From Candidatus Electronema aureum (GTDB lineage: Bacteria > Desulfobacterota > Desulfobulbia > Desulfobulbales > Desulfobulbaceae): a stretch of 32,000 nt of DNA. Shown here one piece after another: positions 1,647 through 25,910 of this stretch (position 1 is its first letter; each line of letters starts with the position of its first letter). The stretch is from NCBI GenBank assembly GCA_004284765.1, contig NQJD01000004.1, positions 90,001 through 122,000 on the forward strand, given 5' to 3'. The notes beneath the pieces were generated by a model. That model worked only from the letters and a program-made list of their open reading frames with translations. It did no database searches and was not told the origin of the DNA. Made by a program: the position numbers and the translations under genes.

Positions 1647-2312
1647 TCACATCTTTCCGTCTCTCTTCTCAATCTGTTCTTTCTTTTCTGCGGGCAGAGA
1701 GTCATAGAGGGTGTCGATATGCTTTGGTTGTGTGATCATAACATCCGCGATAATATTGACTAATTTGGCGAGTTGGGCAGCAGTGTCAGGATCATCGCGC
1801 AAGTCAAGCTCGCCTGGATGCACTGCCTCATTTCCAATCACGCGAACGATGTCCAGACTCTTTTGAATACGAGGGTTCAAGCCTTTCTTAACCAGCCCGG
1901 CAATATCCTGATTGATGTTCTTGCCAGACTCGCCCAAGTGTGCGCAGAGTTTCTGCACACAGAGCCGGAGCAGTGCGGCAGCACCACGAGGCGAGCGATT
2001 GATGATACTCCGTGCCTCCTCAAAATCTTGGCGGATATCATCGGGAAGATCACTGTTCGGCATAGGTGCTGTGGAGGAATCCGGGTGAACCATGTTGCCT
2101 TGCCACCAAATGCTGAACTGGCGGCAATGGAGGCATCGACAGACAGACATTTCCTTGATTAAGGTAGCACGTCGATCTTTCGGTTGAGTTGAGAAAAATG
2201 ATGGACCAATATCGAAGCCCCCAGCAGACCACTTTTGTTGCGCATATGCGTTACAGAATGGACAATTGAATGATGGTGCATCGAATGTCGGCGGAACATA
2301 TGGTTGTGTCAT
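1647..2312 (-). CDS. Zn-ribbon + DUF4145 domain protein (221 aa)
   Basis: The N-terminus carries CPFC...CRCLHC (four Cys, Zn-ribbon-like). The C-terminal half (AALLRLCVQKLCAHLG...IAGLVKKGL...LDIVRVIGNEAVH) matches my recollection of the DUF4145 pattern (R..GN.A.H). It starts 24 nt after the radA stop on the same strand. Confidence 0.6.
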   Translation of the reverse strand: MTQPYVPPTFDAPSFNCPFCNAYAQQKWSAGGFDIGPSFFSTQPKDRRATLIKEMSVCRCLHCRQFSIWWQGNMVHPDSSTAPMPNSDLPDDIRQDFEEARSIINRSPRGAAALLRLCVQKLCAHLGESGKNINQDIAGLVKKGLNPRIQKSLDIVRVIGNEAVHPGELDLRDDPDTAAQLAKLVNIIADVMITQPKHIDTLYDSLPAEKKEQIEKRDGKM

Positions 2313-2336
2313 ATTTTCATCCCTATTCTCGTTATG

Positions 2337-3707
2337 TTATACAAAGAGCCTCTCCACCACTTCATGCACGGTGCGGACGGGATGCACAAGGATGCCATCG
2401 GCGGAACCCGCCTCAAGCTGGCGACGGCTTGATTCGGGCATGAGGAAGGTCTTGAAACCAAGCCGCTGGGCTTCGCGCAGGCGCATCTCCATCTGACCAA
2501 CCGCCCGAATCTCACCCGCCAGGCCTACCTCACCGCAGACTACGGTAGCCGGGTCAACGATCTTCTCGTAGAGACTGGAGAGCAGGGCGACGATGACTGC
2601 CAGATCAAGGGCAGGCTCGTCAATGCGGATGCCACCCGCGATATTGAGGAAGATGTCATGGTTGAAGAGGGTCAGCCCGATTTTCTTCTCCAAGACTGCG
2701 GTGAGCAAGGCAAGACGCTGCGGGTCAGCACCAATGGCGGTGCGCCGGGCGGTGCCGAGGTTAGAAGGACTGACTAAGGCCTGAACTTCCACTAAGATAG
2801 GCCGGGTGCCTTCCACACTGGGCATGACCACTGAGCCAGGCACATTCACGGGCCGCTCGGCGAGAAAGAGCGCAGAAGGATTATCGACCTCAGCCAGACC
2901 GCTTTCCTTCATCTCGAACACGCCAATTTCGTTGGTGGAGCCGAAGCGGTTCTTGACCGTGCGCAGGAGGCGGAAGACTTGGCTGCTATCGCCCTCAAAA
3001 TACAGCACCGTATCAACCATGTGCTCTAACACACGCGGCCCGGCAATGCTGCCGTCTTTGGTCACATGGCCGATGAGGATAATCGGCAAGTCCGTGCGCT
3101 TGGCAAGGTTGACTAAGAGCGAGGTGGATTCGCGCACCTGCGTGACCGAGCCGGGCGCAGAGCTGACCGTCTCGCTGTACATGGTCTGGATAGAATCCAC
3201 AGCGAGAAAAGCAGGTTGCACTTCCTCCACCAAGCTGATAATGGCTTGCACAGAGTTCTCGGCAGCAAGAAAGATGCAGTCGCTTTGCACAGCTAACCGC
3301 TCGGCCCGCATCCGTATTTGACGGACAGACTCCTCGCCGCTGACGTAGAGGAGCTTGTGCTTCTGCGCGGCTAAGGCTGCAAGCAGCTGGAGAATGAGGG
3401 TGGATTTACCGATACCCGGATCGCCGCCGATCAGGATCATGGAGCCAGGTACGATGCCGCCGCCCAGCGTCCGGTCTAACTCGCTGATGCCGGTGACGAG
3501 GCGGACAGACTCCTCGCCGCCTTCACCGTTGAGCGGGAAGACCTCTGCTACCGCGCTGCCGCGCAGACGGGGCTTAGACTGCTGTTGCTCGCGCAGGCTG
3601 TCCCACTCGCCGCACTGCGGACAGCGGCCCAGCCATTTGCGGCTCTCGTGGCCGCAGCTGGCGCAGAGGAAGATAAGTTGTGGTTTAGCTGGGGCCATGC
3701 GGTTCAT
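2337..3707 (-). CDS. radA: DNA repair protein RadA/Sms
   Basis: N-terminal Zn-ribbon CASCGHESRKWLGRCPQCGEW, Walker A GGDPGIGKST, the RadA-specific KNRFG motif, and a Lon-like C-terminal domain. The ATG at 3705-3707 overlaps the upstream stop as ATGA. An alternative ATG at 3698 (MAPAKPQ...) is equally plausible. The ORF-track start at 3740 is a TTG. Confidence 0.95.
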   Translation of the reverse strand: MNRMAPAKPQLIFLCASCGHESRKWLGRCPQCGEWDSLREQQQSKPRLRGSAVAEVFPLNGEGGEESVRLVTGISELDRTLGGGIVPGSMILIGGDPGIGKSTLILQLLAALAAQKHKLLYVSGEESVRQIRMRAERLAVQSDCIFLAAENSVQAIISLVEEVQPAFLAVDSIQTMYSETVSSAPGSVTQVRESTSLLVNLAKRTDLPIILIGHVTKDGSIAGPRVLEHMVDTVLYFEGDSSQVFRLLRTVKNRFGSTNEIGVFEMKESGLAEVDNPSALFLAERPVNVPGSVVMPSVEGTRPILVEVQALVSPSNLGTARRTAIGADPQRLALLTAVLEKKIGLTLFNHDIFLNIAGGIRIDEPALDLAVIVALLSSLYEKIVDPATVVCGEVGLAGEIRAVGQMEMRLREAQRLGFKTFLMPESSRRQLEAGSADGILVHPVRTVHEVVERLFV

Positions 3708-5146
3708 CCGTGATGCCGCTTCCTGTGACAGTTCGGACAAAGAGCGACTGTATTTTCTATGGTGTCTGCTCCTCCTTGAGCCAATGGAACAATATGATGC
3801 GTTTCAAGGAAAGGCTCATTCGTCGATTTGCTGATAAAAGGCGCAGGTTGCTTGCAGTCGAAGCATATTCCGTTAGCTTTTCTTTTTGCATATTCGACAA
3901 TATATGGATTTCTTTTAAATTTTAAAACGATTACACTTAACCGTGACGATTCAATGCAGCAGTTGGCGTTTTTTATTCTCTCTTCCAGATCGTGAATACT
4001 CAATTTTTTGACTTCTTTTTCCATTTGCTCCTGTTCTCGATAATAATCATCGATTGCAGTGTAAACAGGATCAGAGGTGCGACTTGATAACACTTGTGAC
4101 AAATAGGCAGTTAATCCAGGGGAATGAGTCCTTCTCATCAGCGGAGTTATCTTGGTGTTGCGTATCGCATAATCGATAAAACGTCTGTTCGCTTCTTCTA
4201 AAGAAGGTAAAATATTAACAATATGCTCATGCGAAACAAGACAGCCGACAGAGTCGGGAACTTTGGCAAGACAGTCAGGGACTTCTTTTAGATTATTAGA
4301 AATAATCTTTTTCTTTCCTTGATTCCCTTGAAATTTCACAGCTGTTGTCTCTGTGAAATTTAAAAATTCTTTCAGAACGAGTACTAATGAATATTTTTTA
4401 TATATAGTTATGCAGTATTCTTGGCCAACATTAAATCTTATAAATTTTCCATCTTTATCAAGATTTATATTCCAATTATCACATCTCAGTTCGTTGGCGT
4501 AAAAAATCGCATCTGACAAGAAATGTAGAATATTTTTTCTCAATTTAACATCTGGAAGCAATTCTTCGGCGATCTTCTGAGCCGACTGAACGTTTTCTCT
4601 GTCAATTTTTTTAAATTCATTGCGATTATTATCTTTACCGCACTTCCAAATTTCTTCGAGTTCATTTGCCACATCATCAGGGATGATTGACCCAGACCCT
4701 CTCGGATGCCAATATTTTTTCTTTAAAACATGATGATTTTCAAGCAGATCAATATTTATCATGCGATCCGCCCCAGGAACAAGTATTCTGTCAAAATCTA
4801 TATCTACGTATAGTGCTTCCTTCTGAGTCTGACTATTATTCCAATGTGTATCAGGATACACATCTGATGCAGCCCATCCAGAAGCCATGATGCCTTTTGG
4901 CTCTTTCCCTAAACGAATAAGAAAAAGACGATCACCTTTTTGAATGGATTTCCGTGATCCTGTACTCCAGTCTCCTGAGAAGACTCCTCTTTTTTTAATT
5001 TCCTGAGCTGCATCGGCAATATTATCCCAATGATAATATTCAGGGTTCCATATCAATAAGTACGTGGCCATTTTTTCGTCAAAATTTGACGTTGAATGCC
5101 TTAAACGGCTGAACGCTCCGCTTGTCTTATAGAACGGCGAGGCCAT
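3704..5146 (-). CDS. PUA/EVE-like N-terminal domain fused to a McrA-type HNH endonuclease (candidate modification-dependent, type IV-like restriction enzyme)
   Basis: The C-terminus CFDCKQPAPFISKSTNEPFLETHHIVPLAQGGADTIENTVALCPNCHRKRHHG closely follows the McrA-family HNH motif. The N-terminus YLLIWNPEYYHWDNI...DWSTGSRKSIQKGDRLFLIRLGKEPKGIMASGWAASDVYPD follows an EVE/PUA-like pattern (W..., GD.., G.....YPD). The body of the gene (~3750-5100) is visibly AT-rich against GC-rich flanks. The start is ambiguous: ATG at 5146, or ATG at 5071 (MATYLLIWNP), which fits the domain boundary better. Confidence 0.7.
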   Translation of the reverse strand: MASPFYKTSGAFSRLRHSTSNFDEKMATYLLIWNPEYYHWDNIADAAQEIKKRGVFSGDWSTGSRKSIQKGDRLFLIRLGKEPKGIMASGWAASDVYPDTHWNNSQTQKEALYVDIDFDRILVPGADRMINIDLLENHHVLKKKYWHPRGSGSIIPDDVANELEEIWKCGKDNNRNEFKKIDRENVQSAQKIAEELLPDVKLRKNILHFLSDAIFYANELRCDNWNINLDKDGKFIRFNVGQEYCITIYKKYSLVLVLKEFLNFTETTAVKFQGNQGKKKIISNNLKEVPDCLAKVPDSVGCLVSHEHIVNILPSLEEANRRFIDYAIRNTKITPLMRRTHSPGLTAYLSQVLSSRTSDPVYTAIDDYYREQEQMEKEVKKLSIHDLEERIKNANCCIESSRLSVIVLKFKRNPYIVEYAKRKANGICFDCKQPAPFISKSTNEPFLETHHIVPLAQGGADTIENTVALCPNCHRKRHHG

Positions 5147-5172
5147 TTGCGCAGCCCCGCCGCTTCTCCATT

Positions 5173-8100
5173 TCAGTGCTGCTGTGACCCACACGCCAGC
5201 ATCTGCTCATTCAGCCGCTGGGCTTGCAGGCAGAAGGCCTCCATCCGCGCCTCGATGAGCTGCGGGAAAGGATTGCCGTCGGTTTCGATAGCGAGGAAAG
5301 GCAACTTGCGCTCTTTGGTCAGAAGAGACTCCCACGCCACGCTGTTGCCAAGCTGAATCTTCTTCTCCGTCGTGGTGAATTTCTCACTCAGAACTGCTTC
5401 AGCTACCCGTGAAGGCATACAGCCAAACGGCCCGATGGAGATCACCCCGCAAGACGGATGGAGGATTTCGTGCAAGGCCGCACCCACGGTGAGAATGGTC
5501 TCCACCGTGAACTGCTTGGAGACAAACCGCTCACCCGCCTCAATTACCGGTTCAATCGGCGAAGGAGTGCCGTCATAAAAGAAGAGGCCAGAGAGAGAGA
5601 GCCGCTTGCGGATAGCCTGATCAAAGTATTTCTTGATCTGTCGCCGGATGGCGAAGCCCGGTGTTGCCTCGCCCTCAATGCCTTCGCCGATCAGCCAGTC
5701 CACATACTTCATCCACTCGCCGATGGAAGCAGTGCGGGCAACAAAGCCACGGGCAGCCAGCTTCTCAATCAAGTGTTGCAGAGAAATAGGATCGTGGCGG
5801 ACGTAGATTTCACCGAGCAAGGAAATCTTAGGCATCTGCGCGTAGGGTATCTTCAGCTCAATCTGGCGCAGACGGAGCGCGCTACGGGAAAGCTGATCAG
5901 CTAACACCGGCCAGCGTCGGTGGATGACCGCCTGAATCGCCCGATGCTCTGCGTGGAAAATCTCCAACGCCTCTTCTCGGTCTTTGGCTCCAGCCAGCAC
6001 CGCAGGCCACATTTCATCAAAGATATCGCCGATGATGATTGCTCGCCAAGCCGCCCGCAGGAAGCTGTCGCTGAGGTTGCAGTAGCCGTTCATGGCAGTC
6101 GGGGTGAACATCGCCACGTCTGGAATGTGCTGCTGCTCCACCACCCGCTTGGTATAAACGTGGTACTGACCGAAACGGCAGGGGCCTTCCGCGCTGGCCA
6201 TATAATAAACCAGCACCTCGCCGGGCTTGCGCTGCTTGACGCTGTTGAGCAATGCGCCGAGCGTGGTTTGCAGCGGCAGACATTCCTTGCAAGAGGCGTT
6301 GCCACGGCCCAGCTTAAGAACTTCCTCATCCGCCGCTGGCATGACCTCAGCTTTTATGCCGACTCTGTTAAAGGCGGCAGCCAAGAGCGGGGTGGCATAG
6401 CGGCTCATGGCCGGAACTAAAAGCCGCACACGCGGATCAGTCATCGGCAGCCAGTCGCCGTCAGAAGTCCGCACGCCGGTCACGCCATCCCTGTTCTCTA
6501 CTTCCGCTGCGTGGAAGATCTTGCCGAGAGCCTGCTTCGGCTGGCCCTTCTTCTGAATCTCTCGGTAATAGCGGATGATATCCAAGAAGGCTTCAATCCG
6601 GGTTTCCAAGCCCGCATCAGCAGTGTGGCTGTCTAATTCCAAGGTCAGCGAGGGCTTGCGGCCCATGATGCTGCGGAAATAGCTGACAATGAAGGAGTCT
6701 GGCCCGCAAGAGAAGTTGGTGATATACGCCCCGTAGAGCTGCGGGTGCTTCTCGACAAAGCGCGCGCCCTTGAGGATGATCTGGCCCATAACCCAGAACA
6801 TGTTCGCATCATCAGCTAATTGCTCCTCCCAGTAGGGCAGCATGTCAAAAGGAATGATGCTGATGCCCCGGCTGGCAAACTTGGCTGGAATACCCTTGTT
6901 GGCGGCACTGGCAAAGCTGTTGTACGGTCGCCCAAAGACCACCACGCCGAATCTGTCCGGGTTCTGCTCAAGATCCGCCAGAGCCTGTTTGCCCATGGCG
7001 CGGATGTCTTCAGTGAAGGCATCTTGAGCGGCAATAGCGGCCTGCAAGGCAGCATCTGCCTTGGCAGCATCCATGCCGAACTGTTTGGCCAAGTCACGGA
7101 TGGCATCGCGGTCAGCCGTGTAGCCTTTGGCGAAATCCAACACCTGATAGATGACGTTCTTGCTGTTCTCCAAGGCTGGGAAGGCAGTGCGGAGATAATA
7201 CGGCTCGCCTTGCACTAACACGCAAGTACACGAAGTCTTGTCCTTCTCACCAAGATCAAAGCCCTTCAGTTGCGGCAGAAAGATGTAGTCTGGTTTCTCC
7301 GCTATGAGCGCAGCAATGTAATTATGGGCGATTTCCACCGGATAGCAGAAGGAAGAACCCTGCTGATCCGCGCCTCTGGGGTCTTGCGCCGCAGGCAAAG
7401 TCAGCCGGAAGCCCAGTGCCGCAAAGAAGGCGTTGAAAAAGGGGAAATAGGTGTTGAGCAGGAAGGAGCGGTTCATGCCGACCGTGGGCCGCTTGTCCTC
7501 CGGGCTGACTGGGGCGAGGTCACGGAAGACCCGCCGTTCGCGCCGGATGACTAAATCATAGTCGCCAGCCTCCACCTTGCGATTGTGAATTAAGTTGTCA
7601 TAGCGATTGCAGATGCCGCCAAAGGGATAGACCTTGCCCTTGATCTTGATCCGAGCAATCTCACAGCCCCGGTCGCAGTCCTTGCCACCGCCGCATTTGA
7701 ACGGCTCGCCGTATTCCACCTCACGGTTGATCAGCTCCTCCAAATCGTACTGCTCGGATTTGAGCAAGCCCTGCTCCATCCGTCGCTCGACCTCCAAAGC
7801 CACACCGAAAGCACCCATCAGCCCGGCTTCAGACGGCACCACCACCTGCTTGCCAGTCAGCCCAGCCAAGGCCGCTGGCACAGCCTGATTGTAGCAAACC
7901 CCGCCTTGGACAAAGACCTTTTTCCCCACCGGGCGGCTGCCTTTCACTCGATTGTTGTAATTCATGCCGATGGAATAGACTAACCCAGCCACGATGTCTT
8001 CCAACGGCACATTCTCCTGCACCGAGCGTTTGATGTCCGAGCCGATGAAGGCCGCGCACTGGTCACTGAAGTTGGGCGGGGCGGTGGCACGGAGAGCGGT

Positions 8101-9453
8101 TGCGCCGATATCTGTCACCTTGATGCCAAGGCTTTCTTTGGCCGCTTCTTCCAAGAACGAGCCGGTGCCTGCGCTGCACGCTTCGTTCATGGCGTAGTCG
8201 CTGGGCACACCGTTGGTGATGTAGGTGTATTTGGCATCCTGCCCGCCGATCTCAAAGATAGTGTCCACTTCGGGATCAAAATGCACCGCTGCCGTGGCGT
8301 GGGCGACAATCTCATTGATCACGCCATCAGTCAGGGCGTGCAGTCCGGCAATCTGTCTACCCGAACCAGTCACGCCCAAGCCCTCGATGACCACCGGCAC
8401 CTTGACCTGATCAGCCAAGGCACGATAGACATTCTTTGATGCGCCGATGGGATCGCCGTTGGTGCGCAGATACTCGGCAGCAATGATGGCCTTGTCCTTG
8501 CGCCGCATCAGTACGCCCTTGGTGGTGGTGGAGCCAACATCTAAGCCGAGTATGACCTGATCGCCAGCCTCAGCAATGCCCCGCTCTTGATGCTTGTAAT
8601 CCACCAGCTTCTGGCACTCGGACAAAGGCGGCAGAGTGGCCAGCCCAGCCCGATGCTCGGTGAAAATTGTATCCAACGAGATGAATTGCCTGCATTCATT
8701 GTCCAAGGCCCACAGTGCCGCGCCCACGGCCTCAAAGACAAAGGTCTCGTCTAAGATACGCAGCTCAGGCAAGGCTTCGCGCAAATAATGAATCATGGCC
8801 TTGTTGCCTGCGCAGCCACCCACCAGCATCACCGAATCCTTGGGCAGCTTTTTTAGCAGCTCCAGCACTTTGCCGGACATCATCTTGGATAAGCCAGCCA
8901 CTACTTGATTCTTGGGCACTCCTTTGTTGAGGGCATGGGTGCAGTCACTCTTGCAGAAGACTGAGCAGCGGCCCGACACCTTGTGCGGTTGCTCCGGCAA
9001 GTCCATTTCGCTGACTTCATTCAGGGTGATGGACATCCGCCCTAACTGCTGGAGGAAGAATTCACCAGTGCCAGAAGCACACTTGCTGCCGGTATGAATG
9101 TCGCTGACCCTGCCGTCCTCATCCAAATGATAGACCATGGTGGTCTCGCCGCCCGCGCTGATTACTACTCGGCAAGGCTGCTCTTTGGGCAGCAAAAAGG
9201 CAGCGGCTAACTCCACGGCCTCTGGTTCGGCAATACTGGAGAAGTTCAGCATATTCCTAAACTTGCGCCCAGTAGCCGCGATCTTGAATTCCTGAAGATT
9301 ATCAATCTGGCCAAGTAGCTCGCGCAGCGTCCGGCGCGGGTTGCCGTCATGGGCCTGAGAACTGGAAAAGAGGATATGGGTACCAGAGGCGTTCCGTTCC
9401 AGTCCCGCTAAGGAAATACTGGAGGCCCCAGCGCAGATGCCGAGAGATTTCAT
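5173..9453 (-). CDS. Giant fusion of two BcrAD/BadFG-type ATPase domains with DUF2229-type domains (2-hydroxyacyl-CoA dehydratase activase-related, 1426 aa)
   Basis: There are two acetate/sugar-kinase-fold ATPase modules: LGICAGASS...CASGTGEFF...RCSVFCKSD and LGLDVGSTTTKG...EIGGQDAKY...CSAGTGSFLEEAA. They are followed by a long C-terminal region typical of 'CoA-substrate-specific enzyme activase' fusions. The start is set at the ATG at 9451-9453 (MKSLGICAG); the track start at 9582 is a GTG, and the intervening 43 residues have no activase-like sequence. Confidence 0.8.
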   Translation of the reverse strand: MKSLGICAGASSISLAGLERNASGTHILFSSSQAHDGNPRRTLRELLGQIDNLQEFKIAATGRKFRNMLNFSSIAEPEAVELAAAFLLPKEQPCRVVISAGGETTMVYHLDEDGRVSDIHTGSKCASGTGEFFLQQLGRMSITLNEVSEMDLPEQPHKVSGRCSVFCKSDCTHALNKGVPKNQVVAGLSKMMSGKVLELLKKLPKDSVMLVGGCAGNKAMIHYLREALPELRILDETFVFEAVGAALWALDNECRQFISLDTIFTEHRAGLATLPPLSECQKLVDYKHQERGIAEAGDQVILGLDVGSTTTKGVLMRRKDKAIIAAEYLRTNGDPIGASKNVYRALADQVKVPVVIEGLGVTGSGRQIAGLHALTDGVINEIVAHATAAVHFDPEVDTIFEIGGQDAKYTYITNGVPSDYAMNEACSAGTGSFLEEAAKESLGIKVTDIGATALRATAPPNFSDQCAAFIGSDIKRSVQENVPLEDIVAGLVYSIGMNYNNRVKGSRPVGKKVFVQGGVCYNQAVPAALAGLTGKQVVVPSEAGLMGAFGVALEVERRMEQGLLKSEQYDLEELINREVEYGEPFKCGGGKDCDRGCEIARIKIKGKVYPFGGICNRYDNLIHNRKVEAGDYDLVIRRERRVFRDLAPVSPEDKRPTVGMNRSFLLNTYFPFFNAFFAALGFRLTLPAAQDPRGADQQGSSFCYPVEIAHNYIAALIAEKPDYIFLPQLKGFDLGEKDKTSCTCVLVQGEPYYLRTAFPALENSKNVIYQVLDFAKGYTADRDAIRDLAKQFGMDAAKADAALQAAIAAQDAFTEDIRAMGKQALADLEQNPDRFGVVVFGRPYNSFASAANKGIPAKFASRGISIIPFDMLPYWEEQLADDANMFWVMGQIILKGARFVEKHPQLYGAYITNFSCGPDSFIVSYFRSIMGRKPSLTLELDSHTADAGLETRIEAFLDIIRYYREIQKKGQPKQALGKIFHAAEVENRDGVTGVRTSDGDWLPMTDPRVRLLVPAMSRYATPLLAAAFNRVGIKAEVMPAADEEVLKLGRGNASCKECLPLQTTLGALLNSVKQRKPGEVLVYYMASAEGPCRFGQYHVYTKRVVEQQHIPDVAMFTPTAMNGYCNLSDSFLRAAWRAIIIGDIFDEMWPAVLAGAKDREEALEIFHAEHRAIQAVIHRRWPVLADQLSRSALRLRQIELKIPYAQMPKISLLGEIYVRHDPISLQHLIEKLAARGFVARTASIGEWMKYVDWLIGEGIEGEATPGFAIRRQIKKYFDQAIRKRLSLSGLFFYDGTPSPIEPVIEAGERFVSKQFTVETILTVGAALHEILHPSCGVISIGPFGCMPSRVAEAVLSEKFTTTEKKIQLGNSVAWESLLTKERKLPFLAIETDGNPFPQLIEARMEAFCLQAQRLNEQMLACGSQQH

Positions 9454-9661
9454 AGGCGTATGAGGGAGATCAGGTTCTATTGGTTCTACCGCTGATGAAA
9501 TGTTGAGCGGCGAACCAAAAAGTATTATAAGGCAGACAACAACGTGGGGCCGCCTTTCATCGTGCCAAATGTAGGAAAACACGTTCCACTTGAACAGGCA
9601 AGTTTTTTTTCAGGATGAGGGCGCAACACCGCTCGCAGCAGCGATGATGCGCTGATTTCTC

Positions 9662-9690
9662 TTGACGCGGGGCTGCAATTCAGTTAGACA
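9662..9690 (+). promoter_or_regulatory. Candidate sigma70-type promoter for the thiS leader
   Basis: TTGACG (9662-9667), a 17-nt spacer, then TAGACA (9685-9690), located just upstream of the TPP aptamer. The -10 element is weak, and this is a sequence-pattern call only. Confidence 0.3.
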
Positions 9691-9697
9691 CAGAGCT

Positions 9698-9795
9698 GCG
9701 TTTCACGGGGGGTGCTTCTGCGGAAGCTGAGAGAGGCGGCTGCCTCAACCCTTGGAACCTGATACGGGTCATGCCGTCGTAGGGACAGTGAGAAA
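9698..9795 (+). promoter_or_regulatory. TPP (THI-box) riboswitch aptamer
   Basis: All hallmark elements appear in order: GGGGUGC, CUGAGA, ACCC, GAACCUGAU, GGGUCAUGCCGUCG, UAGGGA. The DNA reads cacggggggtgcttctgcggaagctgagagaggcggctgcctcaacccttggaacctgatacgggtcatgccgtcgtagggacagtg. It lies upstream of thiS-thiG-thiH. Confidence 0.9.
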
Positions 9796-9838
9796 AGCCA
9801 TGCCGCGCCTTTCCCCCTTCCCTTCGTTTGTCCGTCCG

Positions 9839-9912
9839 GTAGGGGTGAACCTTGTGTTCACCCTGTTATATCACATCGGGCAAGATCGGGCGATCACAAG
9901 AATCGCCCCTAC
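9839..9912. repeat. REP-like hairpin doublet (REPIN-like), copy A, in the thiS 5' leader
   Basis: GTAGGGGTGAAC-CTTGT-GTTCACCCT ... GGGCGATC-ACAAG-GATCGCCCCTAC. These are two hairpins whose outer arms (GTAGGGG / CCCCTAC) are themselves inverted repeats. It is homologous to 13203..13291. Confidence 0.8.
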
Positions 9913-9952
9913 GTGTTGAATTTCCACCATATACCTGACTGTCTGGCATCTC

Positions 9953-10150
9953 ATGCACATAACCCTGAACGGCCAGTTCACGGCAACCGCCGCCCTCACC
10001 TTGCTTGACATGATCAATGAGCAAGGCTTTGTGCCGGATGCCGTGATTGCTGAAGTCAATTTCGAGCTGATTAAAAGAGACCGCTGGCAGCAGCACCTAC
10101 TCCACGAAGGAGATACGGTGGAGCTGCTCAGTTTTGTAGGAGGAGGCTGA
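9953..10150 (+). CDS. thiS: Sulfur-carrier protein ThiS (65 aa, C-terminal GG)
   Basis: MHITLNGQ...LLSFVGGG*. Size, the ubiquitin-like pattern, the terminal Gly-Gly and the position upstream of thiG all fit. No obvious SD sequence was seen. Confidence 0.88.
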
Positions 10151-10151
10151 A

Positions 10152-10943
10152 ATGGATGCAACAATGAACGCGGCAGACGATGCGCTGCTGCTCGGCGGGG
10201 TGCGCTTTGCCAGCCGCCTGCTCACCGGCACGGGCAAGTTTGCCTCGCACGACCTGATTGCCCCGATGCTCGCGGCCAGCGGCTCGGAGCTGATTACAGT
10301 GGCCTTGCGCCGGGTTGACCCCAAGGCAGGCGAGCAGGATATCCTGCGCTACATCCCGCCTTCGGTGCGGATATTGCCCAACACCTCTGGCGCGCGAACC
10401 GCCGAGGAAGCGGTGCGCATCGCTCGGCTGGCGCGGGCGGCAGGTTGCGGCGACTTCATCAAGATTGAGGTGATCACCGACAACAAATACCTGCTGCCGG
10501 ACAACGCCGAAACCCTGCGCGCCACTGAAATCCTTGCCAAAGAAGGCTTCATTGTCTTGCCCTACATGTTCCCTGATCTAACCGTGAGCAGGCAGTTGCA
10601 CGATGCGGGCGCGGCGGCGGTAATGCCGCTCGGCTCGCCCATCGGCAGCAACCGGGGCTTGGAGATGAAGGCCATGATCCGGCGGATGATCGAAACCAGC
10701 AAGCTGCCGGTGATTGTCGATGCAGGCATCGGCAAGCCCTCGCAGGCGGCGGAGGCAATGGAGATCGGTGCGGTAGCGGTGCTGGTCAACACCGCCATCG
10801 CCACCAGTAGCGACCCGGTCATGGCTGGCCGTGCCTTTGGCCTCGCGGTGCAAGCCGGGCGGCTGGCGCGATTAGCACAGCTAGCCGGGGAGAAAGACTA
10901 CGCCGAAGCCTCCTCGCCCCTGACCGGCTTTCTGCGAGCATAA
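10152..10943 (+). CDS. thiG: Thiazole synthase ThiG
   Basis: 263 aa with [46 protein letters not shown] and VDAGIG motifs. The start is 1 nt after the thiS stop. Confidence 0.95.
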
Positions 10944-19103: not shown

Positions 19104-19273
<170 letters not shown>

Positions 19274-19277
<4 letters not shown>

Positions 19278-20242
19278 TTCGGTATACTGCACTGCCGTGC
19301 TGCCCGCACCTGCTCCAATTCCTCGCGGTCTTTCTCCAAATCAGGATGGCCGATATCCTCTTCAATCTGCACGGCCCGACTGATGTATTCCTCTGCCTTG
19401 GCAAGATCACCTTGGTTTTGGCAGGTGAGTCCAATGTTCCAGCAGGTGAAGGCTTCATGTGATTTATCACCGACCTCCCGTGCTATCACCAAAGCTTGTT
19501 CCCAATACTCTATGGCCTTGGTAGTATTGCCCTGCTTATCGTAAATCCTAGCGATGTTGTTCAGGTTTGCACCTTCCACGATCTTGTTGCTAACCTCGAT
19601 GTTGACAGACAGGCTCTGTTTAAGATAGGTCAAGGATGTCTCATAGTCGCCTTGGGCATCATAAACTTGACTGATATTGTTCAGGGTCATTCCTTCCCCT
19701 TCCCGGTCGCCAATCTCTCGCATGATTGTCAGACTCTGCTCAAGATACTGCAAGACTTGCTCGTGCCTGTTCTGCACATGGTAAATTTCGGCGATGTTGT
19801 TCAGCGTCCACGCTTCTCCCTGCCTATCGGACAGCTCGCGGCGTATCGACAAGCTCTGCTCATAGCAGGCCAACGCCTTCGCTAATTCGCCACGCTTCCG
19901 GCAGGTATAGCCCAGACTATTTAGGCACCAGCCTTCATCCTTGCGGTCGCCTGCCTGCCTTGCTGCATTAAGTCTCATAGTTATGGCAGCAATGTCCTCT
20001 GTCCAATATCCCTGCCGGTCTAAGTAAGTGCTGATTGCTCGCACCAAGACTTTTATCTCCTGCCACAGTTGGCTGTTCGAGCAACTCTTCATCACCCGCA
20101 AGCATTGCACCCGTTCCTTGTCCAAGCGGGCATAGCCTGCCGCACCACGAGCACTCTCTTTTTCTGCCAATGCGGTATAGTGTGCAGCAAGCCGCTGGCA
20201 TACTCCGGCAAGCTCGGCACTTGAAGCCGCATGTTCAGGCAT
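19274..20242 (-). CDS. TPR-repeat protein, paralogue 1 (322 aa), NB-ARC-associated sensor-like module
   Basis: Repeated 40-residue-class TPR units (W/TLNNIxxIYxxQGxYExALxYxxQSLxIxREIGDRxGE). The ATG at 20240-20242 ([11 protein letters not shown]...) matches paralogue 2. The 3' end and stop codon lie inside the valS-fragment junction. Confidence 0.85.
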
Positions 20243-20332: not shown

Positions 20333-21313
20333 CTACGCCTCTCCGCCCTTTCCTTGTTCCACTTGCCGCGCTGCCCGTACCCGTGCCAATCCCTCGCGGT
20401 ATTTCTCCAAGGAAGGATGACCGATCTGCTCTGCAAGCTGCACGGCTTGGCTGATGTATTCCTCTACCTTGGCAAGGTTGCCGAGGTCTTTGCAGATGAG
20501 GCCGATGTTCCAAAACGACTCTGCTACTCCAACCCTGTCGCCAATCTGTTGATATATCGATAAGGCTTGTTCCAAATACTTCAACGCCTTAGCAGGCCTG
20601 CCAAAGGCACGGTAGATCATAGCGATGTTGTTCAGGGTTTGTCCTACTCCGATTTCATCGCCAGCCTCCCGCCTGATAGGTAGGCACTGTTCATAACAGG
20701 TCAAGGCTTGCTCGTAGTCGCCTTTGGTGTCATAAACCCCACCGATATTATTCAGGGTCGTACCTTCTCCCTTCCGGTCGCCGATCTCCTGCCAGATGCT
20801 CAGACTCTGCTGATATTGTTCCAAGGCCTGCTCATACCTGCCCTGTGCATGGTAAATCGCGCCGATGTTGTTCAAGGTTGCGCCTTCTCCCTGCTTGTCT
20901 TCCACCTCGCGATGTATCGGCAGGCTTTGCTTATAATAGGTGAGAGCCTTCTCACGCTCGCCGCGCCTTTCACAGGTATAGCCAAGCTCATTCAGGCACC
21001 AAGCTTCATCCCTGCGGTCTTCAACTTGTTGAGCCGCAGTGAGTTGCATTTTTAGAGCAGCTAGTCGATCTGCCCAATGACCCTGCCGGTCAAGGTACTT
21101 CTGGATTGACCAGACCAACGCTTGCACCTCCTGCCACAGCTTGCTTGCCAAGCACCTCTCTATCAACCGCAAGCACTGCACCCGCTCCTTATCCAAGCGG
21201 GCATACCCCGCCGCGCCACGAGCACTCTCCTTTTCTGCTAATGCAGTGTAGTGCGCAGCAAGCCGCTGGCATACTGCGGTCAGTTCCGCACTTGAAGCCG
21301 CATGTTCAGGCAT
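20333..21313 (-). CDS. TPR-repeat protein, paralogue 2 (326 aa), overlapping the NB-ARC gene stop
   Basis: It has the same architecture as paralogue 1. The ATG at 21311-21313 overlaps the NB-ARC stop (21306-21308) by 8 nt (...ATTGCAAATGCCTGAACATG...). Confidence 0.85.
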   Translation of the reverse strand: MPEHAASSAELTAVCQRLAAHYTALAEKESARGAAGYARLDKERVQCLRLIERCLASKLWQEVQALVWSIQKYLDRQGHWADRLAALKMQLTAAQQVEDRRDEAWCLNELGYTCERRGEREKALTYYKQSLPIHREVEDKQGEGATLNNIGAIYHAQGRYEQALEQYQQSLSIWQEIGDRKGEGTTLNNIGGVYDTKGDYEQALTCYEQCLPIRREAGDEIGVGQTLNNIAMIYRAFGRPAKALKYLEQALSIYQQIGDRVGVAESFWNIGLICKDLGNLAKVEEYISQAVQLAEQIGHPSLEKYREGLARVRAARQVEQGKGGEA

Positions 21314-22466
21314 TTGCAATGGTCTCCCACATGGATTTGGCATGAACTGTCAGGAGCGCGTGCATCTGAAAGCGCACCTCGCCATCCTCCTGATACGGCT
21401 CCAGCAGTCCGCGCTTCTCCAGCTCGCGGATTGCCGGACGCGGATCATCAACACCCCACGCAGCTGCTATGGCAGCACGATCAAAGGTTGCCGGTTTCGG
21501 CGCAAAGACTCCCAAGAAGGCAAACTGCTTCCGGGTCAGCGCATCAAGACGGTCTGTGCTTTTCCGTAGCAGTGCAGTCACAGAGGGTGTGGTCTGGCCG
21601 GATAAATCAGCGCGATCTGCGGGCGCAGCTTCTTGCAGCAGTCGGGTGCCTTCAGTCAGCTCGTCCAGCAACTCCCTGACTCCCCAGCCCATAGTTGCTT
21701 CGGCAGCAAGCAGGCTACCAGCAACACTTAACGCCAGCGGCATACCGTCTAACTCCTGCACCAGCTGCCGCACCCCTTGCTCATCCTGCGCCACAGACTC
21801 AGGCGAGAGCTGGCGGATCAGCTCGATGGAGTCCTCTTCCGACAGCACCAGCAGGCGGTACACCGCCTTGTCCGGCAAGCCGAGCTTCCGGGCCACATCA
21901 GGCTCACGGGTGGTGAGCAGCGTTCGGCACGCCCGCCCGCCGACAAGGAAGGGCTGCGCGTCAGCGGCCTGCCACACGTCATCTATGATCAGCAGCATCC
22001 GGCGGTCGCGCAGCAGTCCGGCGAGCCGATTCTGCCGCTCTTCAATGCGCTGATACCGCTGCGGATCATCACCGAAGGCAAGCAGCCATTGCCCCAGTCC
22101 TGCCAAGGGATTGGGCGACATGCCCAAGGCCGTCCACAGCACGCCATCAGGGAACGCCTTCTTCACTTCGGCATCATGCGCCATAGCTGCCGCCAGCGTG
22201 GTCTTGCCAATGCCAGGCCAGCCCCGCACACTGGTGATCAAGGTTGTTGACGGCTCGCCAAAGAGACGCTGCCGCAGCGCAGCCATGTCGTTGTCACGCC
22301 CGATGAACAGGTTGGGTGGGGCTGGCAGTAGACTTGGAGAAGGAAAAAGCACAGGCTGCTTGCCGTCTGTATATACGTTAATCATTGTGGCATGGTCTTT
22401 GACCACGGTTTGACCGCCACTATTGCTGTCGTAGTTATCACCATGCACCTCAGTCTGGTTGCTCAT
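21306..22466 (-). CDS. NB-ARC (STAND/AP-ATPase) NTPase, 386 aa, with no fused effector or repeat sensor domain
   Basis: Walker A GWPGIGKTTLA, Walker B MLLIIDDVW, LLTTR, and the GMPLAL motif, followed by a winged-helix-like end (FAFLGVF...MHALL). GGGGGAAGGA lies immediately upstream of the ATG. The N-terminal 32 aa is a short motif shared with the upstream small ORF. Confidence 0.9.
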   Translation of the reverse strand: MSNQTEVHGDNYDSNSGGQTVVKDHATMINVYTDGKQPVLFPSPSLLPAPPNLFIGRDNDMAALRQRLFGEPSTTLITSVRGWPGIGKTTLAAAMAHDAEVKKAFPDGVLWTALGMSPNPLAGLGQWLLAFGDDPQRYQRIEERQNRLAGLLRDRRMLLIIDDVWQAADAQPFLVGGRACRTLLTTREPDVARKLGLPDKAVYRLLVLSEEDSIELIRQLSPESVAQDEQGVRQLVQELDGMPLALSVAGSLLAAEATMGWGVRELLDELTEGTRLLQEAAPADRADLSGQTTPSVTALLRKSTDRLDALTRKQFAFLGVFAPKPATFDRAAIAAAWGVDDPRPAIRELEKRGLLEPYQEDGEVRFQMHALLTVHAKSMWETIANA

Positions 22467-22486
22467 TCCTTCCCCCTGTCATTATC

Positions 22487-22876
22487 TCATGCTGCCCAAT
22501 TCGTCCATTGCTCACCACACCAGATTAACCCCTGACCGAGCAGATTGCCAACAGCAACCGCCGCTTTAACAGTCTTTGAGCTTTCCTCCAAGATGGAGAC
22601 CGCTTCTTTCAGACTGTCTGCTATTCTTTTCCGGTCAGGAGGATTCCTTCTCGCCAGTCTCAACGCACCATTAACCTCGTGCTCCACATCCTCCTTGACT
22701 TCCTGCGCAACAGGCAGGTTTGAAAGCTCCTGCTTTGCTTTATCCAGAAGGGCAAGCAGCTCTTCAACCGGTGCCTGCTGGCTTATATTGATCTGCACAG
22801 CGTTGTCTTTGGCGATGTACTGCGGCCCGCCGCTACTTTCAAAGCTGTCTCCGTGAATAATCTTGATGTCACTCAT
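22487..22876 (-). CDS. Small protein (129 aa): shared N-terminal motif + helical region + C-terminal hydrophobic segment; candidate effector or adaptor of the NB-ARC system
   Basis: The ATG is preceded by AAGGGGGAA 7 nt upstream. The N-terminus MSDIKIIHGDSFESSGGPQYIAKDNAVQINIS aligns without gaps to the NB-ARC N-terminus. The C-terminus TVKAAVAVGNLLGQGLIWCGEQWTNWAA is hydrophobic and aromatic. No known family was recognised. Confidence 0.7.
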   Translation of the reverse strand: MSDIKIIHGDSFESSGGPQYIAKDNAVQINISQQAPVEELLALLDKAKQELSNLPVAQEVKEDVEHEVNGALRLARRNPPDRKRIADSLKEAVSILEESSKTVKAAVAVGNLLGQGLIWCGEQWTNWAA

Positions 22877-22900: not shown

Positions 22901-25585
22901 TCATCGCAGCTTCCCCAGCCGCTCCCTCGACTCCTCATTCTTCGCCAGACGCGCCTTCAGCTCCTCCAGCTTGGCCTGCTCCTTGGCAACCACATCAGGC
23001 GGGGCATTGCTGAGGAAGTTCTCGTTGCCCAGCTTGCCGCGCACCCGCTGCAAATCTTGCTCGATCTTGCTGCGCTCGCGGGCCAGCTTGTCCAGCTCGG
23101 CATCCACGTCAATCAGCTCCTTGAGCGGCACCACCACCTCAACGCCGTTCACCAGCGCGTGACCGGCATCGTCAGGCACTGCACCGGATTCCACAATCTC
23201 CAATGCTTCGGCGCGGGTCATGGCGCAGATGGAGCCGCTGAAGGAGCGCAGCAGCTCGCGCTTGCCTGCGTCGGGACAAATCAGCACAGCCTGCACCTTC
23301 GCGCTCGGATGCACGTCCGCCTCGCTGCGGATGGTGCGAATCGCAGTGATGACCTCCATCAAGAGCTGCATGGACTGCTCCGCCTCCGCGTTCTCCCAGA
23401 GCGGCCTTTCTTCTGGGAACGCCTCCAGCATGATGGTGCCGCGTGTGCCCGGCAGCTGGCTCCAGATTTCCTCGGTGACAAAGGGGCAGATCGGATGCAG
23501 CATCTTCAGGATATGCTCTAAGACACAGAGCAGCACACCGCGTGCCTGCTCGCGTTTACCTGCGTCATCGCTGAACAAATCTGCCTTGATCCACTCCACG
23601 TACCAATCGCAGAACTCGTGCCACGTAAATTGATAAATGGCCGAGGCGATCAGGTTGAAATCATAGCCGTCCAATGCCTTGCGCACGTCGCAGATGGTGG
23701 CGTTCGTGCGGCTGAGGATCCAGCGGTGCGGCAGGGACAGCTTGCCGGGGTCATCGGCCACAGCAACAATGCCCGGCTCGCTCTCCTTAATGTGCATCTG
23801 GGCAAAGCGGGCTGCGTTCCAGAGCTTGTTGATGAAACGCCTGTAGCCGTCAATGCGCTCCTCATCCATCCTAATCTCACGGCCTTGCGCGGCAAAGGCG
23901 GTCAAGGTAAAGCGGAAGGCATCGGTGCCGTACTGCTTGATCATGTCCAGCGGGTCAATGACGTTGCCCGTTGACTTGGACATCTTCTTGCCCTGCTTGT
24001 CGCGCACGAGGGCGTGCAAATACACGTCGCGGAACGGCACCTCGTCCATGAAATGCAGGCCCATCATCATCATCCGCGCCACCCAGAAGAAGAGAATGTC
24101 AAAGCTGGTGATCAGCACCGAGGTCGGGTAAAAGGTCTGCAATTCTTTGGTGTTACCCGGCCAGCCGAGGGTGGAGAAGGGCCAGAGAGCGGAGCTGAAC
24201 CAGGTGTCTAAAACGTCGTGCTCCTGCGCCAGATGAATCTTGCCGCAGCGGGGGCAGAAGCCCGGATCCTCGCTGGCCACGATGAGATGGCCGCATTCGA
24301 GGCAGTTCCACGCCGGGATGCGATGGCCCCACCAAATCTGCCGCGAAATGCACCAGTCGCGGATGTTGTCCATCCACGCGTAGAAGGTATTGTACCAAGT
24401 GTCGGGATAGAGCTTGATGCGGCCCTCGCGCACCGCCGCCACGGCCTTGTCTGCCAGCGGGCGCACGGAGACAAACCACTGTTTGGAGGTCGTCGGCTCG
24501 ATGACTGTAGCGCAGCGGTAGCATTTGCCGACCGCATGCTCGTAGTCGTCGATCTTCACCAGCAGACCAAGCGCGTCCAAGTCCTTGACGATCTGCGTCC
24601 GGCAGGCGAAGCGGTCGAGGCCCGCGTATTTCCCGGCGTTCTCGTTCATGATGCCGCGCTCGTCCATCACCTTGACCCGCTCTAAGCTGTGGCGGATGCC
24701 GATCTCGTAGTCGTCGCGGTCATGCGACGGCGTGACCTTGAGCGCGCCCGTGCCGAAGTCGCGCTGGACATGATGATCAAGCACCACCGGAATGATGCGG
24801 TCAACGATGGGCAGACGGATGCCGATCTTCTCCAGCCCGGCATAGCGTTCGTCATCCGGGTGCACGGCCACCGCTGTGTCGCCGAGCAGGGTCTCTGGCC
24901 GCGTGGTGGCGATCACCACCGAGCCGGATCCGTCCGCGTAGGGATAGCGGATGTGGTACAATTTGCCAGCGGTCGGGTCGTGCTCAACCTCGTCGTCCGC
25001 CAGCGCAGTCAGGCAGCGCGGGCACCAGTTGACGATGTAGTCGCCCTTGTAAATCAGCCCCTCATTATATAGACGGACGAAGACCTCGCGCACGGCCTTG
25101 GACAGCCCTTCGTCCATCGTGAAGCGTTCCCTATCCCAATCGCATGATGCGCCCATCCGCTTGAGCTGCTGAATGATCGTGCCGCCCTTCTCCGCCCGCC
25201 ACTGCCATACCCGCTCGATGAACTTGTCGCGGCCCAGCTCGTGGCGGGTCGTCTTCTCAGCGGCAAGCTGGCGCTCCACCACGTTCTGGGTGGCAATGCC
25301 AGCATGGTCGGTGCCCGGCACCCAGAGGGTGTTGTCCCCCTTCATGCGGTGGTAGCGCGTCAGCAAATCTTGTAGCGTGTTGTTCAGGGCGTGGCCGATG
25401 TGCAGCACGCCGGTCACGTTCGGCGGCGGTATGACAATGGAAAAGGCCTGGCGGCCTTCGTCCATTTGCGCGCTGAAAGTCTTGTGCGCAAGCCAGTATT
25501 CGTACCAGCGTTGCTCAACCTCCTCAAACTCGTAGGCTTTGGGCAGGTCGTATTTGGCGGCGGACGGCGTGTTTGTATCGTTCAT
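22901..25585 (-). CDS. valS: Valine--tRNA ligase
   Basis: Class I HIGH (PPNVTGVLHIGHA) and KMSKS motifs, an editing domain, and a C-terminal coiled coil. The start is the ATG at 25583-25585 (MNDTNTPSAAKYDLPKAYEFEEVEQRWYEYW); the 22 residues upstream of it have no ValRS-like sequence. Confidence 0.97.
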   Translation of the reverse strand: MNDTNTPSAAKYDLPKAYEFEEVEQRWYEYWLAHKTFSAQMDEGRQAFSIVIPPPNVTGVLHIGHALNNTLQDLLTRYHRMKGDNTLWVPGTDHAGIATQNVVERQLAAEKTTRHELGRDKFIERVWQWRAEKGGTIIQQLKRMGASCDWDRERFTMDEGLSKAVREVFVRLYNEGLIYKGDYIVNWCPRCLTALADDEVEHDPTAGKLYHIRYPYADGSGSVVIATTRPETLLGDTAVAVHPDDERYAGLEKIGIRLPIVDRIIPVVLDHHVQRDFGTGALKVTPSHDRDDYEIGIRHSLERVKVMDERGIMNENAGKYAGLDRFACRTQIVKDLDALGLLVKIDDYEHAVGKCYRCATVIEPTTSKQWFVSVRPLADKAVAAVREGRIKLYPDTWYNTFYAWMDNIRDWCISRQIWWGHRIPAWNCLECGHLIVASEDPGFCPRCGKIHLAQEHDVLDTWFSSALWPFSTLGWPGNTKELQTFYPTSVLITSFDILFFWVARMMMMGLHFMDEVPFRDVYLHALVRDKQGKKMSKSTGNVIDPLDMIKQYGTDAFRFTLTAFAAQGREIRMDEERIDGYRRFINKLWNAARFAQMHIKESEPGIVAVADDPGKLSLPHRWILSRTNATICDVRKALDGYDFNLIASAIYQFTWHEFCDWYVEWIKADLFSDDAGKREQARGVLLCVLEHILKMLHPICPFVTEEIWSQLPGTRGTIMLEAFPEERPLWENAEAEQSMQLLMEVITAIRTIRSEADVHPSAKVQAVLICPDAGKRELLRSFSGSICAMTRAEALEIVESGAVPDDAGHALVNGVEVVVPLKELIDVDAELDKLARERSKIEQDLQRVRGKLGNENFLSNAPPDVVAKEQAKLEELKARLAKNEESRERLGKLR

Positions 25586-25910
25586 GGCAGCGGAAAAGGG
25601 ATAACTTTGTTGAAGGAAAGGCAGTTGAAGAGCAGGAGGTCTATTAAGCAAGTAGTGTTAACAGGCCCTAATGTGCATAGCCTCTTAAAAATACAGGAAT
25701 TTTATGTGCAGACGGCGAGATGCCCAAGTATGGGGTTATCATGTCAACCAGTTGGGATCACAATAAAATTAGAACCGCAGTGAGACTGTCTTCAGCGACA
25801 CACTATCCAAAAAAGAGTTGCACATTAGGTTCTCTGTTTATCGGGCGATGAATTTGCCGGGTGATGGGAAACCTGCCGATCCACACTACTGAGAAGGTGT
25901 CTTCTATGAT

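Follow-up and report, generated by a model that had tools for sequence, protein, structure and literature searches.

The four-gene module downstream of valS

The DNA analysed here, called the window, is a stretch of 32,000 nucleotides (nt) of Candidatus Electronema aureum (assembly GCA_004284765.1, contig NQJD01000004.1, positions 90,001 to 122,000). It carries a module of four co-directional genes located downstream of valS (22901-25651), all five genes being on the minus strand. They code successively for a small protein of 129 residues, a stand-alone NB-ARC ATPase and two TPR proteins. The small protein and the NB-ARC ATPase begin with related peptides of 32 residues, each named tag in the following, and matched tags of this kind are also found on neighbouring genes of other genomes. 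The module forms a small insert flanked by valS and a prephenate dehydratase gene, among genes that are otherwise housekeeping.

The small-protein gene (22487-22876, minus strand, from the list of open reading frames (ORFs)) encodes the amino terminal tag (residues 1-32; 22781-22876), of type A with the pattern KIIHGDxFExxGGxQYIAKDNA, followed by a four-helix bundle (4HB) predicted by AlphaFold2 (residues 37-119; 22520-22768) and a Trp-rich tail. It is the presumed output or effector of the module, whose four genes offer no other candidate for this role. The NB-ARC gene (21306-22466, minus strand) encodes 386 residues with the tag MSNQTEVHGDNYDSNSGGQTVVKDHATMINVY at residues 1-32 (22371-22466) and a Pfam NB-ARC match at residues 58-259 (E=8e-26). 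A gap of 24 nt separates the valS stop from the start of the small-protein gene, and one of 20 nt separates that gene from the NB-ARC start. A ribosome-binding-like sequence of GGGGGAA type precedes both the small-protein gene and the NB-ARC gene, and no promoter-like or terminator-like site was found between them.

The NB-ARC protein has the P-loop GWPGIGKTT and the NB-ARC domain of STAND NTPases. There is no carboxyl terminal repeat sensor on this polypeptide; the TPR repeats are provided by separate genes. TPR protein 1, the presumed sensor subunit (20333-21313, ORF to 21343, minus strand; Pfam TPR_12, E=2e-45), starts with MPEHAASS at 21313 and its start is overlapped by the NB-ARC stop over 8 nt (ATGCCTGA). 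TPR protein 2 (19274-20242, ORF to 20263, minus strand; Pfam TPR_12, E=5e-46) is its paralogue. The split of the NOD-like receptor (NLR) into NB-ARC and TPR genes is natural because of three observations. The 8-nt overlap and the gene order valS, small protein, NB-ARC, TPR recur in a second Electronema locus (L030), and the order and the split are also kept in a metagenome locus (L031). The NB-ARC family counts 990 or more members, and most of the 120 best matches listed are 375-460 residues long with a precomputed Pfam NB-ARC assignment and no repeats. Finally, the TPR proteins match the carboxyl terminal half of fused NB-ARC-TPR proteins of cable bacteria with 73% and 58% identity, the higher value being that of TPR protein 1 with the fused protein of locus L015. 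A frameshifted pseudogene was rejected as an explanation of the split on account of the overlap recurring in L030 and of the very large family of stand-alone NB-ARC proteins.

Over their first 40 residues the two TPR proteins agree at 38 positions, and beyond this they are about 60% identical; in the DNA, the first 150 nt are 89% identical. Their sequences suggest that they could be exchangeable sensor subunits with a conserved docking segment, and the nearly identical starts are possibly maintained by gene conversion. Among the matches listed, the closest relatives of the NB-ARC protein are labelled Candidatus Electronema and Electrothrix, and many homologues come from Chloroflexota (Chloroflexus, Roseiflexaceae, Anaerolineae). 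The amino termini of the family are hypervariable and consist either of short G/N/Q-rich peptides or of known effector and adaptor domains; EAD7 (PF19960), HTH, HNH, trypsin-like and NERD domains and transmembrane segments are found at this position in other homologues (P0142-P0201). The tag therefore stands at the effector-coupling position.

Immediately after the second TPR gene comes a 177-nt fragment (19104-19277, minus strand) that resembles codons 512-571 of the intact valS gene (88% identity, one 3-nt indel). It looks like the relic of a rearrangement or duplication tied to the insertion of the module beside valS.

Matched tags on adjacent genes

Aligned without gaps, the first 32 residues of the small protein and of the NB-ARC protein have 13 identities and a BLOSUM62 score of 69 (initiator Met left out). 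The pair had been noticed in an earlier sequence-only reading of this DNA, whose coordinates and 13 identities are reproduced from the ORFs. That reading also described the underlying DNA as far more diverged than the peptides and, for its proposal to stand, required the likeness to exceed a shuffled background. Both points hold: the coding DNA under the two tags is identical at 48 of 96 positions (50%), with third codon positions agreeing in 9 of 32 cases, and none of 200,000 composition-preserving shuffles of one peptide reaches a score of 69 or 13 identities. The low DNA and third-position identity shows that the likeness is kept at protein level and does not stem from a recent DNA duplication.

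The tags are enriched in N (2.7-fold), G and Q (1.85-fold each), I (1.8-fold) and also D, and depleted in L (0.27-fold), P (0.10-fold) and also R. The exceptions to the pattern of amyloid signalling motifs are V, which is not enriched (0.56-fold), and K, which is not depleted (1.25-fold, against 0.37-fold in bacterial amyloid signalling sequences (BASS) overall). Tag composition correlates with that of all BASS motifs (r=0.71) and of HRAM motifs (r=0.76) and has no correlation with that of disordered proteins (r=0.00). Apart from V and K, the tags agree in composition and beta-propensity with the pattern of amyloid signalling motifs (Q/N/G/V/I enriched, P/L depleted).

In 12 further loci, the tag borne by a 4HB protein has its match at one end of a neighbouring NB-ARC, NACHT or TPR protein, which bears out the recurrence in gene pairs of other genomes on which the sequence-only reading had staked its proposal. 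All cable-bacterial loci that were examined have the pairing, as do loci of other lineages. In the loci listed below under type A, the paired genes are adjacent and co-directional with gaps of about 20 nt. A narrower metagenome scan for 4HB loci yielded 8 loci. Three tag types are distinguished. Type A (KIIxGDNFExxGGxQxIAKDxAT) is carried by the small protein and by the NB-ARC(-TPR) protein next to it. Its pairs are found in Electrothrix scaldis (L001), E. gigas (L005), Candidatus Vecturithrix (L007), L011, L013, L014, L015 and L016, and in the syntenic loci L029 and L031 that follow valS; the sources include a Desulfobulbaceae metagenome-assembled genome, several metagenome contigs and the syntenic Electronema-type loci. 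The tag of the window NB-ARC is also carried by 91% and partial homologues in the syntenic loci L031 and L029. Type B (GDQNIAQGDGAIAKQ) is shared by a 4HB protein and an adjacent TPR-only protein (L008). Type C (IHxGRDYFEHVxGDV) links 4HB proteins to the amino termini of NACHT-FGE-sulfatase proteins coded by adjacent or divergent genes (L024 and L028). In a further type C locus (L021), the carboxyl terminus of an upstream protein of 397 residues, which ends at its stop codon with IHAGRDYFEHIEGNTRVTTGDH, matches the amino terminus of the 4HB protein. The tag occurs in amino terminal, carboxyl terminal and internal positions.

The co-variation of tag and partner was assessed in a 13x13 matrix of Smith-Waterman scores between small-protein tags and partner tags. 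Each of the three types pairs with its own kind, and the total of the own-partner scores is reached by none of 200,000 permutations. Twelve of the 13 pairs individually beat all of 2,000 shuffles. Within type A, partners from the same locus score higher than those from different loci (p=0.004).

The Candidatus Electronema locus with the conserved overlap (L030, 3989-5470, GCA_052785055.1) is syntenic with the window after valS and its NB-ARC protein is 93% identical to that of the window. The NB-ARC amino terminus (MSDNTISNSIVNIIQGRD) and the 4HB tag (MNNTFSITGSTVNVLEVEGNAV) are both replaced relative to the window, which indicates that the small gene and the NLR 5' end are swapped jointly, like a cassette.

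Other arrangements were met in the course of these comparisons. A third tag-bearing gene is present in Electrothrix loci (L001, 8414-8689; L003, 8414-8692; L009, 6080-6355). Its product of 91-92 residues has a tag and a short helical region, its stop overlaps the start of the NB-ARC-TPR gene, and the NLR that follows bears a shorter B-like tag (ISFGTGDINIAQGDGAIA). The tag of the window NB-ARC (starting with MSNQTEVHGDNY) resembles that of the 91-92-residue protein (starting with MSKQTEVHGDNF). This protein may be part of a three-component relay, or an adaptor. The carboxyl-to-amino terminus pairing of L021 (5717-7453) is followed by a Ser/Thr kinase with carboxyl terminal transmembrane segments. 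The label 'Gasdermin_protease' (PF27061) attached to the 397-residue protein of this locus is a precomputed annotation that a Pfam scan did not reproduce, and it was set aside. Locus L020 codes for a TIR_2-Lcl_C protein (336-1484) with an amino terminal type A-like tag (MSNGSQGDNFNSNGGNMNIAQDRG), and a NACHT-Lcl_C gene and a truncated 4HB gene are found nearby. Region 5600-10250 of the same locus translates to repeated short peptides (e.g., QKERNPWKGLK, GKKSLEGIET), a sign of DNA repeats at regular spacing that may be a CRISPR array.

The four-helix bundle and its family

The small protein has 23 close homologues, all from cable bacteria and their relatives and labelled Electrothrix. In the AlphaFold2 model, built from a 14-sequence alignment, residues 1-33 have a predicted local distance difference test (pLDDT) below 50 and are disordered in the monomer. 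The bundle is formed by helices 37-52, 58-75, 82-102 and 104-119 (pLDDT about 85-92). A member of a divergent 4HB subfamily is predicted to have 42 disordered residues followed by a bundle of like fold, and the two subfamilies are homologous (hhalign probability 99.9%, E=9e-36). Helix 4 (KAAVAVGNLLGQGLIW) stands out from helices 1-3: it is Gly/Ala-rich with a charged fraction of 0.06, compared with 0.38-0.43, and has a mean Kyte-Doolittle value of 1.0-1.4. The conserved tail CGEQWxxW comes after it. Docking of the tag onto the 4HB was considered and rejected: the tag type changes while the 4HB is constant, and no docking is seen in the AlphaFold2 models.

The small protein and the 4HB have no Pfam or NCBIfam match, HetE-N included, and a PDB profile search gave no match to the 4HB. 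The bundle matches the carboxyl terminal ~100 profile positions of the PADLOC candidate PDC-M14B (PADLOC-DB 2.0; best E=5e-11), whose carboxyl terminal part is thus homologous to the 4HB; unlike the small protein, it has about 265 residues with an extra amino terminal part. No paper on PDC-M14B was found in the literature searched. EACC1 (Kaur et al. 2020), considered for its Gly-rich conserved helix, was discarded: it has a single transmembrane helix with alpha+beta flanks, and Pfam gives no match.

A profile search of 1.84 billion representative proteins retrieved 89 relatives. The 4HB ends within 10 residues of the carboxyl terminus in 60 of the 63 relatives that are aligned through helix 4. 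All members that were read have, ahead of the bundle, a stretch of 30-45 residues with a high content of G, N, Q, D and H, and the sequence of this stretch varies by subfamily. Amino terminal extensions longer than 60 residues are present in 30 relatives. The domains found ahead of the 4HB are pentapeptide repeats, CHAT, caspase (Peptidase_C14), dCTP-deaminase-like, HNH, TIR_2 with EAD8, EAD8 alone, PNP_UDP, DUF4062 and HetE-N; the HEPN_Swt1 matches at this position are weak (E=7e-4 and 4e-3) and below the Pfam cutoff. Such fusion domains are the repertoire of NTP-dependent conflict systems (Kaur et al. 2020, PMC7159879). None of the 89 relatives has the 4HB on an NB-ARC or NACHT protein, and no 4HB relative was found on a viral contig; there is therefore no evidence for a phage decoy.

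Two relatives (P0058 and P0060) have a Bell-like amino terminal domain (starting with MDPITGAIVAAL), a central G/N/Q-rich stretch and a carboxyl terminal 4HB; of this pair, P0058 alone has a Pfam match to HetE-N. They would bring two putative membrane-active ends onto one chain.

The genomic context is that of conflict systems. The loci are surrounded by toxin-antitoxin genes (HicAB, BrnT, PIN, YoeB/Phd) and ATPase genes. The Vecturithrix locus (L007) lies between a ResIII-type restriction subunit gene and a DNA methylase gene, and L026 adjoins a type I HsdR gene. Elsewhere in the window (1647-5194, minus strand), genes for a DUF4145 protein of 221 residues and for a 496-residue protein with a carboxyl terminal HNH domain flank a RadA/Sms-like gene; this pair is possibly a small defence or mobile element in its own right.

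Proposed mechanism, alternatives and known systems

The 4HB is constant while the tag varies and matches that of the partner, and therefore the features conserved at these loci argue for tag-to-tag recognition with the 4HB as common output. Our preferred interpretation, to which a probability of about 0.6 is given, is that the shared peptide is the recognition tag of an NLR-type conflict module, causing abortive infection or cell death, and that it acts in a homotypic, probably amyloid-like relay to the 4HB. NLR proteins are activated by oligomerisation. In the window module, the TPR subunit would detect an invader or a damage signal and the NB-ARC protein would then oligomerise, clustering its amino terminal tags. 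The clustered tags would take a cooperative beta fold, either amyloid-like or a beta-arch, that would recruit and template the matching tag of the 4HB protein. Folding of this tag beside helix 1 would destabilise the bundle and free the uncharged Gly-rich helix 4 with the Trp-rich tail, which would probably attack the membrane.

The sequence-only reading had proposed a homotypic or amyloid-like motif. The homotypic part is strengthened, the motif being shared beyond chance, recurrent, matched between partners and of BASS/HRAM-like composition; its assignment to a known family is not, as the partner is not a Bell domain and the tag has no convincing match among BASS1-10. Several observations weigh against the relay as drawn here. 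In local alignments to 2-4 representative sequences per family (Table S2), which were used instead of profile hidden Markov models, type A tags have no convincing match to any of BASS1-10: their scores are 18-34 with no consistent family, compared with 68-100 for their own partners. Type C only marginally resembles BASS8. Amyloid formation by the tag is argued from analogy and composition. The type C 4HB genes of L023 and L026 have no recognisable partner nearby. The two replaced tags of L030 are only weakly alike (Smith-Waterman score 28, p about 0.09), and this locus was consequently not retained as a fourth matched type. Some of the co-variation can stem from common descent or from one recombination tract, because the small gene directly adjoins the start of the NLR gene. 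As to the executioner step, helix 4 is only moderately hydrophobic, under the usual transmembrane range, and Foldseek searches of the PDB with two models returned generic four-helix bundles only, all with E>0.08, and no HeLo, MLKL, Bell or pore-former fold. No significant sequence or fold likeness to solved members of the HeLo/MLKL-4HB/Bell superfamily of membrane-targeting domains was detected. The tag and 4HB placed behind a Bell-like HetE-N domain in some relatives would be odd if the 4HB were itself a membrane executioner, and the Bell-like ends of P0058 and P0060 complicate a simple reading of the 4HB in this role.

Among the alternatives, the one that survives best is that the tag is a homotypic adaptor of non-amyloid nature, in which a beta-hairpin or strand-augmentation dimer, or a small oligomer, of finite size recruits the 4HB protein to the activated NB-ARC in the manner of Death-like or EAD adaptors, with no templated self-propagation. 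Recurrence and co-variation fit any homotypic interaction, the fusion partners of the 4HB are those of conflict systems coupled by effector-associated domains (EADs), EAD8 included, and the lysine content of the tag departs from that of BASS motifs. The sequence-only reading had likewise offered an EAD-like adaptor as its second choice, and this survives only as a weaker rival, the shared element being a non-globular peptide of about 30 residues that is disordered in monomer models, whereas EADs are helical and span about 90 residues. The enrichment in N, G, Q and I and the depletion of L and P, as in beta-solenoid and amyloid signalling motifs, also speak against the finite adaptor, as does the occurrence of the tag at the amino terminus, carboxyl terminus or internally, which is expected of a self-contained cross-beta unit. 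We regard it as unlikely.

It is improbable that the small protein is instead a regulator, whose tag would cap or compete with the NB-ARC tag as a decoy, safety catch or chaperone, with the 4HB as a solubilising cap against spontaneous nucleation and the output located elsewhere. Many relatives do have an effector domain (TIR, caspase, HNH, HEPN, dCTP deaminase, Bell-like HetE-N) before the tag and 4HB, so that toxicity of the 4HB is not required, and the lack of a pore-former match agrees with such a role. However, the window, Electrothrix and Vecturithrix modules have no other candidate effector, and a mere cap leaves unexplained the free carboxyl terminus of 60 of 63 relatives, the uncharged helix and the Trp-rich tail. 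In L021, moreover, the 4HB gene comes after the gene with the precomputed 'Gasdermin_protease' label, where an executioner would be placed.

Binding of both tags to a common third partner, be it the groove of the TPR subunit, a phage protein or machinery for localisation or degradation, has a very low probability. TPR domains bind short peptides, the TPR here is a separate polypeptide, and a shared targeting signal would be compatible with sequence alone, but the pairing also holds with TPR-less partners (NACHT-FGE-sulfatase proteins and the 397-residue protein of L021) and the TIR-Lcl_C protein bears the tag too. The strong divergence between tag types, set against a conserved 4HB and conserved NTPases, fits tag-to-tag recognition, and the varied positions of the tag speak against an amino terminal sorting or degron signal. 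Finally, that the tags are alike by chance of low-complexity amino termini, or as remnant of a recent local duplication, is an explanation to which the short length and biased composition of the peptides might lead, but it is refuted by the shuffles and the own-partner permutation test, with third codon positions at random level and the pairing kept in many genomes.

Within the homotypic relay, a broader proposal on the 4HB is put forward tentatively, as possible rather than probable. The 4HB could be an undescribed and widespread cell-death or output module that mirrors HeLo and Bell, in which a prion-like, exchangeable and co-evolving tag on the amino terminal side would control a carboxyl terminal membrane-active helix, and which would also be bolted onto TIR, caspase, HNH, HEPN and dCTP-deaminase effectors. 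If so, amyloid signalling would extend to the cable bacteria of the Desulfobacterota and to a second, independent executioner fold. Bacterial NLR-effector amyloid signalling has so far been a matter of Bell-type effectors with carboxyl terminal motifs, and one Escherichia coli system has been tested experimentally. The locus would define a second family of effectors, without a name in Pfam or NCBIfam and of opposite polarity; its tags are of three or more matched types, its sensor partners belong to several classes and its fusions to known conflict-system enzymes are broad. It also provides a mining rule, namely comparison of the stretch before the 4HB with the termini of neighbouring proteins; present motif screens are restricted to effector carboxyl termini and would overlook the 4HB class. 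The compact four-gene system from a multicellular cable bacterium is directly testable.

The proposed relay has its closest precedents in fungal and bacterial amyloid signalling. In HET-S/NWD2 and in the HeLo/sigma/PP systems, a motif at the NLR amino terminus templates the matching motif of an adjacent helical executioner. Folding of the HET-S motif beside the bundle releases a terminal membrane-inserting helix. The polarity of HeLo proteins is mirrored in the small protein: the membrane end of HeLo is its free amino terminus and the prion domain is carboxyl terminal, whereas the 4HB protein has an amino terminal tag and a free carboxyl terminus.

Bacterial amyloid signalling sequences are found at the carboxyl terminus of Bell-domain effectors and at the NLR amino terminus (Dyrka et al. 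2020, doi 10.1101/2020.01.06.895854). In common with Bell/BASS systems, the genes are neighbours, collinear for the most part and separated by very short gaps; a G/N/Q-rich motif of about 20-30 residues is present both on a helical protein of about 120-140 residues and at the amino terminus of an adjacent NB-ARC or NACHT protein that has TPR or other repeats; one constant helical domain goes with several motif families; and the hosts are multicellular, filamentous prokaryotes. The module differs first in that the tag is amino terminal and not carboxyl terminal to the helical domain (residues 1-32), as it is before the 4HB in all relatives. The sequence-only reading had foreseen this difference from the described topology, which is confirmed on the effector side against the literature read. 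Secondly, a Bell domain is a helical bundle whose amino terminal helix is hydrophobic and which has an acidic residue at position 2-3, while the amino terminus of the small protein is the polar tag and its only uncharged helix is the last one, so that it is not a Bell domain. Type A lies outside BASS1-10, as far as the representative sequences tell. The host is a cable bacterium (Candidatus Electronema/Electrothrix-like) and separate genes encode the NB-ARC and TPR parts of the NLR.

The Bab/Agp system of E. coli (BASS11) resembles the module in being minimal: a motif of about 20 residues is common to a helical protein of about 110 residues and a large sensor. Its amyloid templating triggers a presumed membrane-targeting effector in a defence-island context (Ibarlosa et al. 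2024, doi 10.1101/2024.11.07.622273). Unlike the 4HB protein, Bab has an amino terminal hydrophobic helix and a carboxyl terminal motif, and no sequence or fold relation between the two was found by PDB profile search or by Foldseek against the PDB. EADs are a constant module that links TIR, caspase, HNH, HEPN and PNP effectors to STAND NTPases, being globular helical domains of about 90 residues present on both partners (Kaur et al. 2020, PMC7159879). EAD8 itself occurs in fusion with the 4HB in some proteins and also on a partner NACHT protein. Unlike in EAD systems, the NTPase bears the short tag only and never the 4HB, and no globular adaptor is shared. On sequence grounds, the module is best classed as one that would follow the logic of HET-S/NWD2, Bell/BASS and Bab/Agp with reversed polarity, standing outside those families.

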